From contig JBDLTL010000003.1 in assembly GCA_039799085.1 (NCBI GenBank), positions 1 to 54,345 of the forward strand: a stretch of DNA of 54,345 nt, written 5' to 3'. Position numbers and translations under genes: made by a program. Within the stretch, counting starts at the first letter, position 1; every line of letters starts with the position of its first letter. This document shows, piece after piece, positions 7,100-48,963 of this stretch. The DNA comes from Candidatus Parcubacteria bacterium (GTDB lineage Bacteria; Patescibacteriota; Minisyncoccia; Phycocordibacterales; UBA918). The notes beneath the pieces are model-generated. The model was given only the letters and a program-made list of their open reading frames with translations. It was not told where the DNA came from and ran no database searches.

Positions 7100-7170
7100 C
7101 GGGATGTAGCATAATGGTAGTGTACGCGGTTTGGGACCGTGTGGCCCGGGTTCGATTCCCGGCTTCCCGA
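7100..7170 (+). tRNA. tRNA-Pro(TGG)
   Basis: CGGGATG start, anticodon arm CGCGG-TT-TGG-GA-CCGTG, CCGGGTTCGATTCCCGG T-arm; terminator at about 7178-7206. Confidence 0.93.
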
Positions 7171-7235
7171 CAAAATAAAGACAGCTGACGAAAGTCGGCT
7201 GTTTTTATATCTAAATGTTGAAATGTATATAAATA

Positions 7236-7777
7236 TGTTTCACGTGGCACATAAAACCCTGTTTCATATGGAACTTAGAGATATTTTGTTTTTTCTTAAG
7301 CTTATTTCACATGAGACAATACTTAAGGTGTCACACGATTATGTCTGGTAAGTATTTGATAGTTGCATATCTTTCACGTGGAACAATTCTTACCGAAATA
7401 ACATCAATTTGCCACTCTCCCTCATAATTATGTTCCATCAGCCAGCTTTCGATTGTTCGATACATACGCTGGATCTTTTTCTCATGTACATTTTCCTCAG
7501 GACGCCAGGTTCCATATGAAACAGCGTTTAAAAGTTGCTGCTTTGTTTCATATGAAACTGTTTTGACTTCCACAAAGTGAATTATAGTCTTATTTTTAGA
7601 TGTTTCACGTGACACAATATCAATTTCGCCCCATTTTTTAAGGTAATTTGTCTCAATTGTCACGAAGCCTTTCCTTTTGAGATAGTTACTGGCAATCTCT
7701 TCACCATATGCCCCAACTCTATTCTTGTCTCCTTTCTTTTCAATCTGTTTCATATGGAACTTGTTTCACGTGGCACA
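7236..7777. promoter_or_regulatory. parS: cluster of nine parS-like 16-bp palindromes
   Basis: matches to TGTTNCACGTGAAACA at 7236, 7260, 7303, 7370, 7508, 7544, 7601, 7746, 7762. Confidence 0.85.
7331..7753 (-). CDS. yraN: YraN (UPF0102) family PD-(D/E)XK nuclease
   Basis: G..GEEIA..YL...G......NY....GEIDIV and FVEVK motifs. Confidence 0.92.
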   Translation of the reverse strand: MKQIEKKGDKNRVGAYGEEIASNYLKRKGFVTIETNYLKKWGEIDIVSRETSKNKTIIHFVEVKTVSYETKQQLLNAVSYGTWRPEENVHEKKIQRMYRTIESWLMEHNYEGEWQIDVISVRIVPRERYATIKYLPDIIV

Positions 7778-7830: not shown

Positions 7831-7896
7831 ACTGTCTTTTATAAAGGACAGTACACATAATTGTCCTTTATCCACCTATCCACTCAGTTATCCACA
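7831..7896. promoter_or_regulatory. TAAAGGACA operator-like repeats plus DnaA box upstream of yraN
   Basis: TGTCTTTTA 7833, TAAAGGACA 7842, TGTCCTTTA 7862; TTATCCACA 7888-7896; minus-strand TGCTACGAT -10 at about 7817-7825. Confidence 0.55.
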
Positions 7897-7942
7897 TATT
7901 GCAAAGGCCCGGGCATTTCTGCTCGGGCCAGTGCATCAGCTC

Positions 7943-8287
7943 TCAATCTTTGAGAGCAATGCTGAAAGAGGGGAGTACGAGATCTTGAAGCCAGCACTTT
8001 TCGGTTGCCAGCAGCGTGCCTTTCTTGAGACAGAGTGCATCCACATATTCATTCCCATTTTCGTGGGTATGAATGCTGCCACAGAAGAGAATTGCTGGGT
8101 GAAACCCCGTAGTGTCTTCAGAAAGAATCTGAACCACCGTTCCAGGTGAAGAGATGATTAATTCAAGCTCTTTCTGACCTGCGAGAGAAGCTCCCTCCAT
8201 TGTTGCCAAAACCTCTCGCAGGGTGGGATAATTGGCATCTTTTCGTTTTCGTACCTCCTCGAAAGGAACAAGTTTCTCAACATTCAT
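7943..8287 (-). CDS. hypothetical protein
   Basis: 114-aa ORF filling the gap, hairpin downstream at 7905-7929. Confidence 0.55.
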   Translation of the reverse strand: MNVEKLVPFEEVRKRKDANYPTLREVLATMEGASLAGQKELELIISSPGTVVQILSEDTTGFHPAILFCGSIHTHENGNEYVDALCLKKGTLLATEKCWLQDLVLPSFSIALKD

Positions 8288-8657: not shown

Positions 8658-9326
8658 TTATTTTGCTAAGTCTCTTAGCGCTAGTTCAATCCATCGATTG
8701 AGTTTATGCTTCAAAACTGTGTTGCCGATTATAGTATTTCCAACGCCAAAGTGCAACGTCTCCTTGGTCTTTTGACTGTTGATGTACTGATTCTTGTAAA
8801 ACTGAGCGTAGGGGAGGGTTGTGGCTGTTTTCCAGCGTTTCATACAAGTTTCCTCAGACTGACCTTTGTATAGCAATATCCAAAAATGAATATCCTTTTT
8901 CTCAGCTCCAAGGAACCCAAGTGCAAACTTAATGAAAAGCTTGTGCGCTCCAAGCGAAGTACCAGAAAGACGTATCTGGCGCTCGTTTTTCATATCACCC
9001 TGAGTCAGATAGAGCATAAGCCCCGCCACAAACAGGGGATTGTCTTTGTAGTGCTTATACTCTGTCTCAGCTGAACGCACCGCTTCTTTATACCGATGGG
9101 CTCGCTCGCCACTACGCGCCTTACTCATAAGCTGCAACCGTTTCGCATTCTCAACTCCAGCACGCTTCTTATTCTGCTTCGTTACATTCTCTGAAATAAC
9201 GTTATTTTTCAACCATTTTGAGACCGTACTCTTTGACACATCACATATCTTTGCAACCTCTTCCAGAGTAAAACCTCTCTTTCGAAACTCCAAAGCCTGT
9301 TGGTACTTGCCCTCATTACGAACCAT
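8658..9326 (-). CDS. HTH plus LAGLIDADG-like domain protein
   Basis: N-terminal HTH (GFTLEEVAKICDVSKSTVSKWL); LFVAGLMLYLTQGD helix resembles the GLMLYWAEG motif of CPR/actinobacterial LAGLIDADG-like proteins. Confidence 0.65.
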   Translation of the reverse strand: MVRNEGKYQQALEFRKRGFTLEEVAKICDVSKSTVSKWLKNNVISENVTKQNKKRAGVENAKRLQLMSKARSGERAHRYKEAVRSAETEYKHYKDNPLFVAGLMLYLTQGDMKNERQIRLSGTSLGAHKLFIKFALGFLGAEKKDIHFWILLYKGQSEETCMKRWKTATTLPYAQFYKNQYINSQKTKETLHFGVGNTIIGNTVLKHKLNRWIELALRDLAK

Positions 9327-26827: not shown

Positions 26828-28345
26828 ATGTCAATTGCGCGCGTTACTACGGTGCAACCCCACGTACTGGCGGGCACTATTGTTACCATAGAAGCCGACA
26901 TCTCACGTGGGCTTCATGCTTTTTCGATTGTTGGTCTCGCTGGAAAAGCGATAGATGAATCAAAGGACCGAGTAGGGAGCGCTATTAAGCACTCTGGTTT
27001 TGCCTCACCAAAAACAAAAAATCAAAAAATTGTCATTTCGCTTTCGCCAGCTGACATAAAGAAGGAAGGACCGCTCTTTGATCTTCCTATCGCAATAGCC
27101 TATCTCATAGCTGCTGAAGAGATTGTCACAGACCATGCAGAGCGTATCTTTATTGGCGAACTTGGTCTTGATGGAACACTCAGAAAAGTACGCGGTGTTC
27201 TTAACTGCATCAAGGCCGCAAAAGCTGCTGGTTATGCGGAAGTGATTGTTCCACTTGAAAACGCGGCCGAAGCTGCGCTCGTAACTGATATCACCATTTT
27301 TCCAGCCAAAAACTTGCGTGAGGTGATTGAGCACATAGCCACTGACCCTACGAGCAAGAAGCTCATTGCACAACCTCCCACACATATCGAAGAGGGGTGG
27401 TATGAAAGCACAATTACCCTCGAAGACATCAAGGGACAAGAATCGGCCAAGCGTGCACTCACCATTGCAGCTGCTGGGAGGCACAATGTGATGTTTGTTG
27501 GACCACCAGGAACAGGGAAGACCATGCTTGCTCGTGCTCTGCGAGGACTTTTGCCCCCACTTACTCGAGAGGAAGCATTGGCAGTGACAGCCATCCATTC
27601 GCTTGTTGGAAATGATGTACAAATTTCTTCTAGACCACCATTTCGTTCGCCACATCACACAGCATCGCACACTGCTCTCGTAGGTGGTGGGAGTAACCCA
27701 CGACCAGGTGAAGTGACACTCGCTCACCACGGAGTTCTATTCATGGATGAGTTTCCTGAGTTTGAGAGACGATCTCTCGATGCGCTCCGACAGCCACTCG
27801 AGGATAGAGTTGTAACCATTTCACGCGTACAAGGAACGGCAGAGTTTCCAGCTGATTTTATTTTGGTCGCCGCTCTCAATCCGTATCGAGGTACCGAAGA
27901 TGGCACGGCTGACCTCGCCAGAGCAATGCAAGAAACATATAAAAATAAAGTCTCTGGCCCAATTCTCGATCGTATTGATCTTTGGGTTGAAGTTCCACAT
28001 GTCGACTACGAAACTCTGACCAGTCTAAAGACTGAAACAGGGGAGACAAAGAAAGCGCGCGAAGAGGTCACCCTGGCGCGCGAGCGCATGCTCGCGCGCC
28101 AGGGTGACCTGCAGTCACTCCCAAGCACTAATAGCAATCTCTCCGCCAGAAACATCGAGCAAAGTATTACCTTACGTGAGGACGTGAAAGAAATTCTTAA
28201 GCTTTCAAGCGCCAAACTCAACCTGTCTCCACGAAGCTACCACCGACTTATCAAAGTCTCACGCACCATTGCTGATTTAGCAGATAGCGAACACATTGAG
28301 GCAACTCATGTTCTTGAGGCACTCCAGTACCGAACACCGGTATAA
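26828..28345 (+). CDS. comM: ComM/YifB Mg-chelatase-like AAA+ helicase
   Basis: LSPADIKKEG..FDLPIA, GPPGTGKTMLA, PFRSPHH, GEVTLAH.GVLFMDE, RTIADL. Confidence 0.93.
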   Translation: MSIARVTTVQPHVLAGTIVTIEADISRGLHAFSIVGLAGKAIDESKDRVGSAIKHSGFASPKTKNQKIVISLSPADIKKEGPLFDLPIAIAYLIAAEEIVTDHAERIFIGELGLDGTLRKVRGVLNCIKAAKAAGYAEVIVPLENAAEAALVTDITIFPAKNLREVIEHIATDPTSKKLIAQPPTHIEEGWYESTITLEDIKGQESAKRALTIAAAGRHNVMFVGPPGTGKTMLARALRGLLPPLTREEALAVTAIHSLVGNDVQISSRPPFRSPHHTASHTALVGGGSNPRPGEVTLAHHGVLFMDEFPEFERRSLDALRQPLEDRVVTISRVQGTAEFPADFILVAALNPYRGTEDGTADLARAMQETYKNKVSGPILDRIDLWVEVPHVDYETLTSLKTETGETKKAREEVTLARERMLARQGDLQSLPSTNSNLSARNIEQSITLREDVKEILKLSSAKLNLSPRSYHRLIKVSRTIADLADSEHIEATHVLEALQYRTPV

Positions 28346-47059: not shown

Positions 47060-47109
47060 AAGTGGCACTACTATACATGAACTCAAAAATATTTCAATAG
47101 CACCCGAAG

Positions 47110-47211
47110 TTATGCACCATTATGCACAGGTTGTTCACAGTTGCGTTTTTTGAATCAAAAATGACTCTTCGTTTTGCACCTATTTTAAAGAAAATTTTAC
47201 ACTTTTCCACA
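47110..47211. promoter_or_regulatory. DnaA-box cluster upstream of dnaA
   Basis: TTATGCACC 47110, TTATGCACA 47120, TTGTTCACA 47131, TTTTCCACA 47203. Confidence 0.8.
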
Positions 47212-47258
47212 CCCGGGTATAATTCTTGGTACATCTTATTTCGGTGTTCTTGAATCCT

Positions 47259-48641
47259 ATGAATCTGGTATCACACAGTACTCAAAATCGTATTGTCCAA
47301 ACAAAACAAATCGACGTTAAACAGTTATGGGATGATGCTCTCGTCAAAATCGAGCTCTCAATCACCGCAGCCAACTTCAAAACCTGGTTTCGAGATACCC
47401 ACATCGTCTCAATTGAAGATGGTACCGCCACTATTGGTGTCCCGAGTGTCTTCGTGAAAGACTGGCTCCAAGACAAGTTCCAGACCATGATCCTAAAGAC
47501 GCTTCGTGACCTCACACCACACATCAGAAGTATTGAGTACGTCGTCGTACAGCGTAACGAAAAGAAGCAGGAGGCCAACAAGAACCAAACTATCAACGCC
47601 GCCCTTCCTCTTGAGGACTACTACGTCAACAAGAGTGACAACCTTAATCCGAAGTACTCGTTTGAGAACTTCGTGGTCGGTCCATACAACGCCCTTGCTC
47701 ATGCCGCTTCAAAGACAGTGAGTGAAAAGCCTGGTATCACCTACAATCCACTCTTCATCTACGGAAAAACTGGTCATGGTAAGACTCACCTTATCCAAGC
47801 AGTAGGGAACCAGGTCAAGAAGACTGGAAAGAAAGTCTTCTATGTTACCAGTGAACGCTTCGCGGTTGATTACATGAACTCACTTCAGAGTGGTACTGCT
47901 AACAGTTTTAAAGATAAGTATCGACAGTACGATGTTCTTATTATGGACGATGTGCAGTTCTTGGCCACAAAGGAGAAGACACAAGAGGAACTCTTCCACC
48001 TCTTTAATGCTCTTCACGACAACAATAAGCAGATTGTTTTCTCAAGTGACATTCACCCAGCGCTTCTTGGTGGACTTGAGGAACGTCTTCAGTCTCGTTT
48101 CCAACAAGGAATGATTGTTGATCTTCCAGCTCCTGACCTTGAATCACGCATTGCTATCCTCAAAGCAAAAGCGGCTCAAAACAGCATCGTTCTCTATGAC
48201 GATGTGGTTGAGTACCTGGCTCAGAACATTGAAGGTAATGTGCGCGAACTTGAAGGTGCCCTCAACACCATTATGTGTCAGTCACAACTTCTCGGTCGCA
48301 CCCTTTCCGTCGAAGAAGTCCGCCTTATTATCAAAAACAGCTCACGTCCGCGAAAAACCCTCGCCATCTCTGATGTTGTTGATAAGATTGCTCGCTACTA
48401 CGACATTGAACCAGCGAGTATTTATGAAAAGACAAGACGTAAGGAGGTAGTGAAACCACGTCAAATCATCATGTATATTCTTCGTGAAGATTTTCAAATC
48501 TCATACCCAGCCATCGGTAAGAAGCTTGGTGGACGAGACCACACCACCGTTATTCACTCATGTGAAAAAATAAAAGAAGAGTTAAAGAAGGGAGGGGAAT
48601 TGGAAGAAGAAATCACCCAGGTAAGAATGTTGCTGAAATAA
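47259..48641 (+). CDS. dnaA: chromosomal replication initiator DnaA
   Basis: YNPLFIYGKTGHGKTHL, DDVQF, QEELFHLFN, GGRDHTTV; start moved to MNLVS. Confidence 0.98.
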   Translation: MNLVSHSTQNRIVQTKQIDVKQLWDDALVKIELSITAANFKTWFRDTHIVSIEDGTATIGVPSVFVKDWLQDKFQTMILKTLRDLTPHIRSIEYVVVQRNEKKQEANKNQTINAALPLEDYYVNKSDNLNPKYSFENFVVGPYNALAHAASKTVSEKPGITYNPLFIYGKTGHGKTHLIQAVGNQVKKTGKKVFYVTSERFAVDYMNSLQSGTANSFKDKYRQYDVLIMDDVQFLATKEKTQEELFHLFNALHDNNKQIVFSSDIHPALLGGLEERLQSRFQQGMIVDLPAPDLESRIAILKAKAAQNSIVLYDDVVEYLAQNIEGNVRELEGALNTIMCQSQLLGRTLSVEEVRLIIKNSSRPRKTLAISDVVDKIARYYDIEPASIYEKTRRKEVVKPRQIIMYILREDFQISYPAIGKKLGGRDHTTVIHSCEKIKEELKKGGELEEEITQVRMLLK

Positions 48642-48963
48642 AAAATGAGCCGTACGGCTCATTTTTTATTTATCCACAAAAGGTATGGATAAGTCATTTG
48701 TATTGCTGTGAATTAAAGAAATTATGTTATGTAAAAGTCCGTGGATAGGTGAAAAATTCTGGGGGTAGTAGTAAAGTTTTCCCCACAAAAATAACGACCC
48801 TCGCACTATTCCCACCCTAATTAACACCCGGTACGCACCTTTACCACAGACATGCTGTCTATCTGTGCACAATTCTGACCTTAAAGTACAACATGAATTG
48901 GGCTTTTGCACACTTCCACAGGACTAATAATAAAGACTAAAATGGTGTATAAATAGAAAATCT
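48642..48963. other. oriC: probable oriC (dnaA-dnaN intergenic)
   Basis: TTATCCACA 48670, TATGGATAA, TTTACCACA, TGTGCACAA and other boxes; trio-like TAATAATAA AT-rich end; + strand changes from C-rich to G-rich here. Confidence 0.8.

Follow-up and report, generated by a model that had tools for sequence, protein, structure and literature searches.

A 54,345-nucleotide stretch of DNA from a Candidatus Parcubacteria bacterium (hereafter the window) makes up the entire contig C3 of a 40-contig, 864,052-bp assembly that is 98.27% complete. At positions 7236–7777 it carries a compact array of near-palindromes resembling parS, the binding site of the protein ParB, and this array is written across the small nuclease gene yraN. 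A parS-like site was defined as a 16-mer matching TGTTTCAYRTGRAACA with at most two mismatches (at most one in the stricter counts and at most three in the shuffle test), and by this definition nine sites, each one or two mismatches from TGTTTCAYRTGRAACA, fall within 540 bp. The features of the locus are as follows:

7100..7171, + strand: tRNA-Pro(UGG), convergent with yraN; the downstream boundary of the array
7236..7251: parS-like site TGTTTCACGTGGCACA, CACGTG core, one mismatch to TGTTTCAYRTGRAACA; intergenic, flanked by tRNA-Pro and the yraN stop codon
7260..7275: parS-like site TGTTTCATATGGAACT, CATATG core; intergenic, 24 bp centre-to-centre from the 7236 site
7303..7318: weaker parS-like site TATTTCACATGAGACA, CACATG core, two mismatches; intergenic, 13 bp past the yraN stop codon
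7331..7753, − strand: yraN, 140 aa; UPF0102, PD-(D/E)xK nuclease (Pfam PF02021, E 1.1e-18; NCBIfam YraN models)
7370..7385: parS-like site TCTTTCACGTGGAACA, CACGTG core; in yraN, codes VPRER (residues 124–128)
7508..7523: parS-like site GGTTCCATATGAAACA, CATATG core; in yraN, codes VSYGT (residues 78–82)
7544..7559: parS-like site TGTTTCATATGAAACT, CATATG core; in yraN, codes VSYET (residues 66–70), directly after the catalytic EVK motif
7601..7616: parS-like site TGTTTCACGTGACACA, CACGTG core; in yraN, codes VSRET (residues 47–51), directly after the catalytic D45
7746..7761: parS-like site TGTTTCATATGGAACT, CATATG core; includes the yraN start codon (ATG 7753–7751, − strand), with ATGAAACA on the minus strand read as M-K-Q
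7762..7777: parS-like site TGTTTCACGTGGCACA, CACGTG core; yraN 5′ region, with zero gap to the 7746 start-codon site
7868..7897, + strand: three direct DnaA-box-like repeats, TTATCCACC, CTATCCACT and TTATCCACA; 115–145 bp upstream of the yraN start

Four sites are thus placed within yraN, one over its start codon and four wholly between genes. An earlier note, made from the letters of the window, had listed nine near-palindromes here, and all nine were recovered exactly, with the same tally of cores (four CACGTG, four CATATG and one CACATG), the same four in-gene pentapeptides at their translated positions and the same site over the ATG abutting its neighbour. The array has the form of the 16-bp palindrome TGTTNCACGTGAAACA; the four CACGTG sites are one mismatch from TGTTTCACGTGRAACA, and the departure of the other five from TGTTTCACGTGRAACA is mainly in the central CG. 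Scanning the entire assembly at up to two mismatches, which the note had proposed as a check on whether this is the main cluster, returned 11 sites, nine of them in the array and the remaining two as singles on contigs C4 and C5, which makes the array the only cluster in the genome. At up to three mismatches on both strands the window held 24 matches; 100 dinucleotide-preserving shuffles averaged 3.93, and the highest count among them was 11, so that none reached 24.

About 40 kb separates the array from dnaA (47226–48641), as had been claimed, and dnaA, dnaN and the cumulative GC-skew minimum all fall at ~44–49 kb of the window. The gene comM (ChlI, Mg_chelatase and Mg_chelatase_C domains), also said to be in the window, was located at 26828–28345, within the same origin-proximal 54 kb as the array. 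In four relatives represented by long contigs or complete chromosomes, all sites with at most one mismatch were found at the yraN locus and none elsewhere:

G201: chromosome of 994,774 bp, four site positions, 44.5 kb from dnaA
G202: chromosome of 617,472 bp, four site positions, 31.7 kb from dnaA
G203: contig of 622,966 bp, four site positions, 50.9 kb from dnaA
G204: contig of 416,375 bp, one site position, 42.6 kb from dnaA

The sites are therefore both close to the origin and rare in the rest of the genome, as chromosomal parS sites are, and a single, origin-proximal cluster of ParB-type palindromes has the appearance expected of a chromosomal centromere.

Conservation of the array was assessed in a genus and order sample of 41 genomes (the source genome itself and 40 relatives) and in a wider set, for which one genome per GTDB species was scanned with a YraN alignment and the best 80 of 570 confirmed relatives were taken (records labelled Paceibacteria, Parcubacteria, Nomurabacteria, Kaiserbacteria and similar). 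The motif was present at up to one mismatch in 36 of the 41 genomes, while the reversed-pattern control was nearly always zero. When 30 loci were fetched around the best motif matches, yraN was found by tblastn at 27, and 26 of these carried one or more sites within the gene or on its boundary; at the 27th (locus L004) the sites lie 16–39 bp upstream of yraN. Among the best 80 loci, 76 had a site in the interval from 40 bp upstream to 440 bp downstream of where the yraN match begins, and 71 had at least three sites, with 440 sites in total against 14 control hits. The sites recur at particular offsets from the yraN start codon, namely 8 bp upstream and 137, 182–194, 218–230 and 356–368 bp downstream; the one starting 8 bp upstream is found in most genus members, and the counterpart of the 7544 site has the widest conservation of all within the order. 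Relatives also have a site 15–100 bp upstream of the start codon, corresponding to that at 7762, as well as sites downstream of yraN, with pairs 24–26 bp apart on either flank, and tRNA-Pro was found at 90 of 111 relatives’ loci. One extra genome of the same order (G179) has six sites at its yraN locus. Beyond the order no site was found in or beside yraN at the 30 best-scoring loci elsewhere in the phylum, and none was found at six loci from other orders of the same class or at 13 further loci from the phylum. The parS–yraN association ends at the order boundary (0 of 49 loci beyond it), which rules out parS within yraN as a general property of the phylum.

The codons of the in-gene sites were compared with background usage, with the sites defined by their peptide and not by their DNA (V[STP][RYHC][EG][TRS]; 42 occurrences in 27 genes). 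The earlier note had named peptides kept with freely varying codons as an outcome that would speak against dual coding, and the codons do not vary freely: serine was TCA in 29 of 31 cases (background 0.28) and glutamate GAA in 35 of 35 (0.62), with tyrosine as TAT in 20 of 20 (0.65), arginine as CGT in 12 of 13 (0.25), proline as CCA in 7 of 7 (0.45) and valine as GTT in 36 of 42 (0.47). The same comparison was made column by column in a codon alignment of 99 distinct coding sequences with 136 well-occupied columns (108 sequences were recovered from the two overlapping locus sets and locus L073, nine of them duplicates), where an excess was scored if the modal codon exceeded background by more than 0.3. 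An excess was found at 12 of the 136 columns, of which 11 are parS columns (residues 2, 49, 66, 67, 69, 70, 78, 79, 80, 125 and 126), the sole other column being K93, and codon usage was ordinary at the invariant residues G14, G17, E18, N36, G42, E43, D45, E62 and K64. By site, the 7370 palindrome has, in orthologs with the residue in question, proline as CCA at 0.98 (background 0.54) and arginine as CGT at 0.98 (0.28); the 7508 palindrome has valine as GTT at 0.97 (0.48), serine as TCA at 0.76 (0.38) and arginine as CGT at 0.92 (0.28); the 7544 palindrome has GTT at 0.99, TCA at 0.90, TAT at 0.94, GAA at 0.99 and threonine as ACA at 0.72; and the 7601 palindrome has CGT at 0.84 (0.28). At the start-codon site, K2 is AAA in 28 of 28 orthologs (background 0.60).

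The peptides themselves follow the DNA. The middle residue of the pentapeptide alternates among R, Y, H and C, which share no common chemistry but match exactly the codons CGT, TAT, CAT and TGY spelled by a pyrimidine–purine (Y-R) centre. The V-S-x-E-T frame is used at the conserved positions because frame 0 of the palindrome includes TGA, as read from the sequence, and a few sites close to the N terminus, in YraN proteins from the order's other families, use the remaining open frame. Some of the YraN proteins at those families’ loci (L003 and L005–L009) have an extra parS-like site in this other frame, read as F-L-M-K-[HRN] in the N-terminal helix. Taken together, the codon record indicates that the DNA of the in-gene sites is itself under purifying selection and that the dual coding is real and selected.

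YraN otherwise has the hallmarks of its nuclease family. The catalytic residues D45, E62 and K64 are invariant in a 27-sequence alignment, with D in beta-2 and E-x-K in beta-3, and an AlphaFold2 model (mean predicted local distance difference test score, pLDDT, 88.6) places the four pentapeptides at strand or helix ends. The note’s description of YraN as a nuclease acting with ComM agrees with the literature, in which YraN is a PD-(D/E)xK nuclease working together with ComM during transformation, and active-site D-to-A and E-to-A mutants gave no complementation in Legionella and Acinetobacter (PMC13663708; for this and the other papers cited by accession, statements refer to the portions of their text that were available). 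Outgroup YraN proteins read EVKTR-xx-xxFGxPxEAV in the region that reads EVKTVSYET...VS[YR]GTWRPEENV in the order studied here, which is ~10–13 residues longer, and parS-type pentapeptides are absent from the outgroup proteins compared. YraN has been reshaped, or bent, around the sites, with pentapeptides also in the lineage-specific insert after EVK. In the YraN of locus L005, an insert contains four V-x-x-E-T pentapeptides in a row.

Across the order, the position matrix of the sites reads T-G-T-T-T-C-A-Y-R-T-G-A-A-A-C-A. When positions 8 and 9 were left free in the search, the centre was Y-R in 140 of 142 sites and, in the second set, in 434 of 440 (reversed-pattern controls gave 6 and 14 hits, respectively). 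The centres of the 142 sites were CG (60), TA (39), CA (29) and TG (12), and the picture was the same inside and outside coding sequence. Because the centre is a constrained Y-R step, CACGTG and CATATG are better seen as the ends of one relaxed specificity than as two classes. The earlier note had left a choice between relaxed ParB specificity and two ParB-family binders; the former is favoured by the Y-R step, and the latter was rejected on the strength of the single ParB_N match in the whole genome, which belongs to the following gene:

Contig C1 (L001:655-1875), − strand: ParB, 407 aa from the first in-frame TTG; away from the parS array

This ParB has ParB_N, HTH_ParB and ParB_C domains, and its sequence includes the motifs GERRLRA and ENLQRED. 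In the Caulobacter register, G170, N178, G201 and R204 are kept at the right spacing, and R173 and G201 are of the parS type, as opposed to the Q173 and R201 of Noc (residue roles in PMC7383237, which also gives the published parS consensus as TGTTTCAC–GTGAAACA). The Noc alternative, which combines Q173 and R201 with scattered TATTTCCCGGGAAATA-type sites, does not fit, as R173 and G201 are present and the sites form a single cluster; the NCBIfam nucleoid_noc score is 203.9, below the cut-off of 315. The conserved, DNA-contacting Q162 is replaced by His in 21 of 21 ParBs of the order. Gln stands at this position in 5 of 5 ParBs from lineages of the phylum whose arrays are dominated by CACGTG, and likewise in three solved ParBs that were aligned. 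A further difference is in the recognition helix, with G[KR]SREYVSN in the order against GKARTT[IV]AN. We regard the association of Q162H and the altered helix with the relaxed Y-R centre as a lead, given that the correlation is confounded by phylogeny. ParB further carries an acidic, low-complexity C-terminal extension of ~120 aa beyond the dimerisation domain, and the ParB open frames of relatives range from ~290 to 590 aa.

The partners of ParB were sought in the same genome. A search for ParA/Soj in this 98.27% complete assembly gave no AAA_31 match, and CbiA matched weakly (26.9 bits) in a 558-aa frame; a complete ParABS system with its Walker ATPase was accordingly not found. In the genus and order sample, AAA_31 was above cut-off in 5 of 41 genomes, compared with ParB_N matches in 37 of 41. 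ScpA is present, and one gene gave a strong SMC_N match:

Contig C21:1452-3698 (L042): SMC-like protein, 748 aa; the only strong SMC_N match (221.5 bits)

Its SMC_prok_B score is 537.5 bits against a cut-off of 567.35, both head halves match bacterial SMC and no SMC_hinge match was obtained, and the protein may be a shortened SMC.

As a whole, the locus is best explained, with a good deal of confidence on our part, as a set of nine chromosomal parS centromere or loading sites for a single ParB of the cytidine triphosphate (CTP)-dependent class, four of them coded within yraN. The lone cluster, its proximity to the origin, the single ParB, the in-register conservation and the synonymous-site selection all support the proposal of the earlier note that a chromosome centromere is dual-coded in this gene. 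Selection acts on the DNA of the in-gene sites, with YraN carrying them as V-[S/P/T]-[R/Y/H/C]-[E/G]-[T/R] pentapeptides. The ParB of the order would take any pyrimidine–purine step at the centre (CAYRTG), so that CACGTG, CATATG and the CAYRTG hybrids could all serve one protein. ParB dimers would nucleate at the nine sites, close as CTP clamps and slide over the neighbourhood, where the clamps would load and orient the SMC-like/ScpA complex at the origin-proximal region and thereby mark it for segregation. Since no ParA was found, the role we infer is SMC-ScpA loading, as in Streptococcus pneumoniae, and not a ParA ratchet. ParB binding, clamp loading and SMC recruitment are in this sense predicted steps.

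The DnaA-box-like repeats upstream of yraN may also belong to the centromere. Relatives have at least one box (at most one mismatch) in 92 of 97 distinct upstream regions and at least two in 70 of 97, with 172 of 183 boxes in one orientation and 143 of 183 at 100–200 bp upstream, compared with 29 hits for the reversed-motif control. In the class and phylum controls a box was found in the 900-bp flank at 15 of 49 loci, which is near chance. The repeats thus form a cluster of TTATCCACA-like 9-mers whose position and orientation are conserved across the order. These repeats had raised the idea that the array is itself oriC, which is ruled out by the GC-skew minimum, by dnaA-dnaN and by the richer DnaA-box runs at 47.1–49.0 kb. 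Such runs of DnaA-box-like 9-mers lie on either side of dnaA, at 47100–47225 and 48642–48963 (TTATGCACA twice, TTTTCCACA, TTATCCACA and others), and because they coincide with the cumulative GC-skew minimum they likely constitute a bipartite oriC. Between the repeats upstream of yraN and tRNA-Gly(GCC) there is a 114-aa open reading frame (7943–8287, − strand) with no Pfam match. As a member of the conserved module this frame is ruled out; a homolog was found at 2 of 111 loci, one being the window’s own, and it therefore looks like a local insertion. Upstream of tRNA-Gly, a 222-aa protein is encoded at 8658–9326 (− strand); a helix-turn-helix (HTH_23, HTH_3) at its N terminus is its one recognised domain.

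Several observations weigh against the centromere reading. Four genomes of the order that are 97–100% complete (G031, G032, G033 and G039) and one genus member that is 86% complete (G005) encode ParB and have zero sites at up to one mismatch, and, conversely, two near-complete genomes (G028 and G036) keep sites yet gave no ParB match, with three clustered sites retained in G028. The published consensus keeps a canonical CG centre, which five of the nine sites do not have, and the argument for the function of these five comes from conservation. ParB occupancy is read from sequence at every site. The binomial P values overstate the codon evidence because relatives are not independent samples, and SMC loading is less secure than in model species because the SMC-like protein is 748 aa long, hingeless and below the family cut-off. 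In G036 (same order, 98% complete; locus L004), no ParB was found by family or protein search, YraN is without VSxET peptides and only one or two sites are left, upstream of the gene. This genome may have lost ParB and the in-gene parS sites jointly, which as a single case is an anecdote.

One alternative is that the palindromes are operators of some other DNA-binding protein, such as the 222-aa helix-turn-helix protein. The coding of that protein 0.9 kb away, the five sites without a CG centre and the retention of some sites in G028 and G036 despite no ParB being found there would all fit such a binder, but positions 1–7 and 10–16 agree with parS, there is one cluster per genome at 32–51 kb from dnaA, and ParB is present in 37 of the 41 genus and order genomes. 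Moreover, the clade with the relaxed site centre is also the one with an altered ParB helix-turn-helix, and the phylum's other lineages have clusters of canonical CACGTG sites, so we consider a different binder quite improbable. We give even less credence to the possibility that the repeats have no function as DNA, being either a by-product of constraint on the VSxET peptide or remnants of mobile repeats. The in-gene sites do share one frame and encode similar pentapeptides, as this would require; against it, four sites are wholly intergenic and a fifth includes the start codon, synonymous positions are fixed (TCA, GAA, CGT, TAT and CCA), the exchange of R, Y, H and C at the middle residue is exactly what a Y-R step would produce, the peptides are missing from outgroup YraN proteins, and with one cluster per genome nothing is dispersed. 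The single cluster, the fixed codons and the outgroup YraN proteins rule out both the protein-repeat and the mobile-repeat explanation.

A third possibility, put forward in the earlier note as repression of yraN by ParB that would link segregation to recombination, adds to the ParB–parS centromere instead of replacing it: the position of the array may also let ParB clamps gate transcription of yraN, so that expression of this transformation D-loop nuclease would follow ParB occupancy or the cell cycle. The start codon and 5′ region of yraN lie under two abutting sites, a site that begins 8 bp before the start codon is seen repeatedly in the genus, and native-level ParB of Pseudomonas aeruginosa represses promoters beside the intergenic sites parS3 and parS4 (PMC5521831). 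The partnership of YraN with ComM (PMC13663708), whose gene lies in the same origin-proximal 54 kb, points the same way. In P. aeruginosa, however, genes with the intragenic sites parS1 and parS2 were not derepressed (PMC5521831), and at the present locus no promoter could be placed, with a sigma-70 scan giving 7 hits against 3.9 expected, none of them convincing; a consensus scan for terminators gave zero hits. It could also be that a small gene beside conserved tRNA genes holds the association as a frozen accident, and overall we hold gating of yraN to be possible but rather unlikely. Somewhat more speculative is a fuller scenario for this ParA-less order, in which the reading head of ParB (His162 and the recognition helix) changed so as to accept any Y-R centre, the centromere became fused with yraN beside DnaA boxes, and ParB and DnaA together gate yraN once per cell cycle. 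If true, this scenario would couple segregation and replication status to the recombination of incoming DNA.

Much of what the centromere reading draws on is already known, including parS and ParB themselves, origin-proximal clusters, ParA-less systems and intragenic parS, which has been described in P. aeruginosa (PMC4368675). Placing parS within genes is therefore no novelty as such, and here the earlier note overstated its case. In a body of literature that lacked most subscription journals, the matches listed for parS with yraN were unrelated by title, except for one paper on chromosome replication and segregation in B. subtilis; no paper combined parS and ParB with Patescibacteria, and the matches for the candidate phyla radiation were unrelated by title. 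Among the matches listed, no title describes a conserved, in-register parS array with codon-level selection. The locus offers a clean natural case of dual coding: throughout an order, one gene has kept several predicted protein-binding sites at constant register, and what this costs can be seen in its frozen synonymous codons and reshaped protein. It would also offer a natural variant in which ParB–parS specificity differs at the middle of the palindrome, with Q162H and the SREYVSN helix named as candidates that extend ParB/Noc specificity work, and a handle on chromosome organisation and segregation in uncultured, ParA-less bacteria with small genomes.

Compared with the Spo0J and ParB–parS systems of Bacillus subtilis and Caulobacter, the sites share a 16-bp palindrome with the same outer 7 + 7 positions, proximity to the origin and rarity elsewhere, and ParB shares the N-terminal GERRxRA domain, a helix-turn-helix with R173 and G201 and a C-terminal dimerisation domain. 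The differences are nine sites in 540 bp on one small gene, the Y-R centre, the failure to find ParA and two changes in ParB, where the DNA-contacting Q162 has become His and the A/S-R-x-x-[IV]-A-N recognition helix reads SREYVSN. In Caulobacter, DnaA binds boxes inside the parS region (Mera et al. 2014, via the review PMC6399470), and DnaA-box-like motifs likewise adjoin the array studied here, although these are two to three direct repeats ~10–20 bp apart in one orientation, for which DnaA binding is suggested by motif conservation. The nearest model is S. pneumoniae, in which an orphan parB acts with four parS sites near oriC and no ParA, and in which, as in other species, ParB–parS recruits SMC-ScpAB (PMC7022226). 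Both systems have ParB–parS without ParA and encode SMC/ScpA-type partners; the four pneumococcal sites are close to oriC, however, and the SMC-like protein here is 748 aa long with no detectable hinge.

In P. aeruginosa, nine of the ten parS sites are predicted to be intragenic (PMC4368675), and its parS1–10 resemble the present array in lying in coding sequence and, where promoter-proximal, in being able to silence neighbours (PMC5521831). They are single sites in separate genes, and the available portions of these two papers describe no order-wide, in-register, multi-site array conserved at the codon level. Tight multi-site arrays are also found in other lineages of the phylum, for example in G080, where a 0.9-kb stretch (contig C2:129052–129943), ~9 kb from its yraN, contains seven perfect TGTTTCACGTGAAACA sites, and dense parS arrays may be common in the small genomes of the phylum. 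Unlike the array in yraN, those of G049, G076, G080, G081, G101 and G110 are all CACGTG, and G067 and G085 have one CAYRTG variant each. The yraN loci of G049, G067, G080, G085, G101 and G110 carry no sites, and the five ParBs examined keep Q162.

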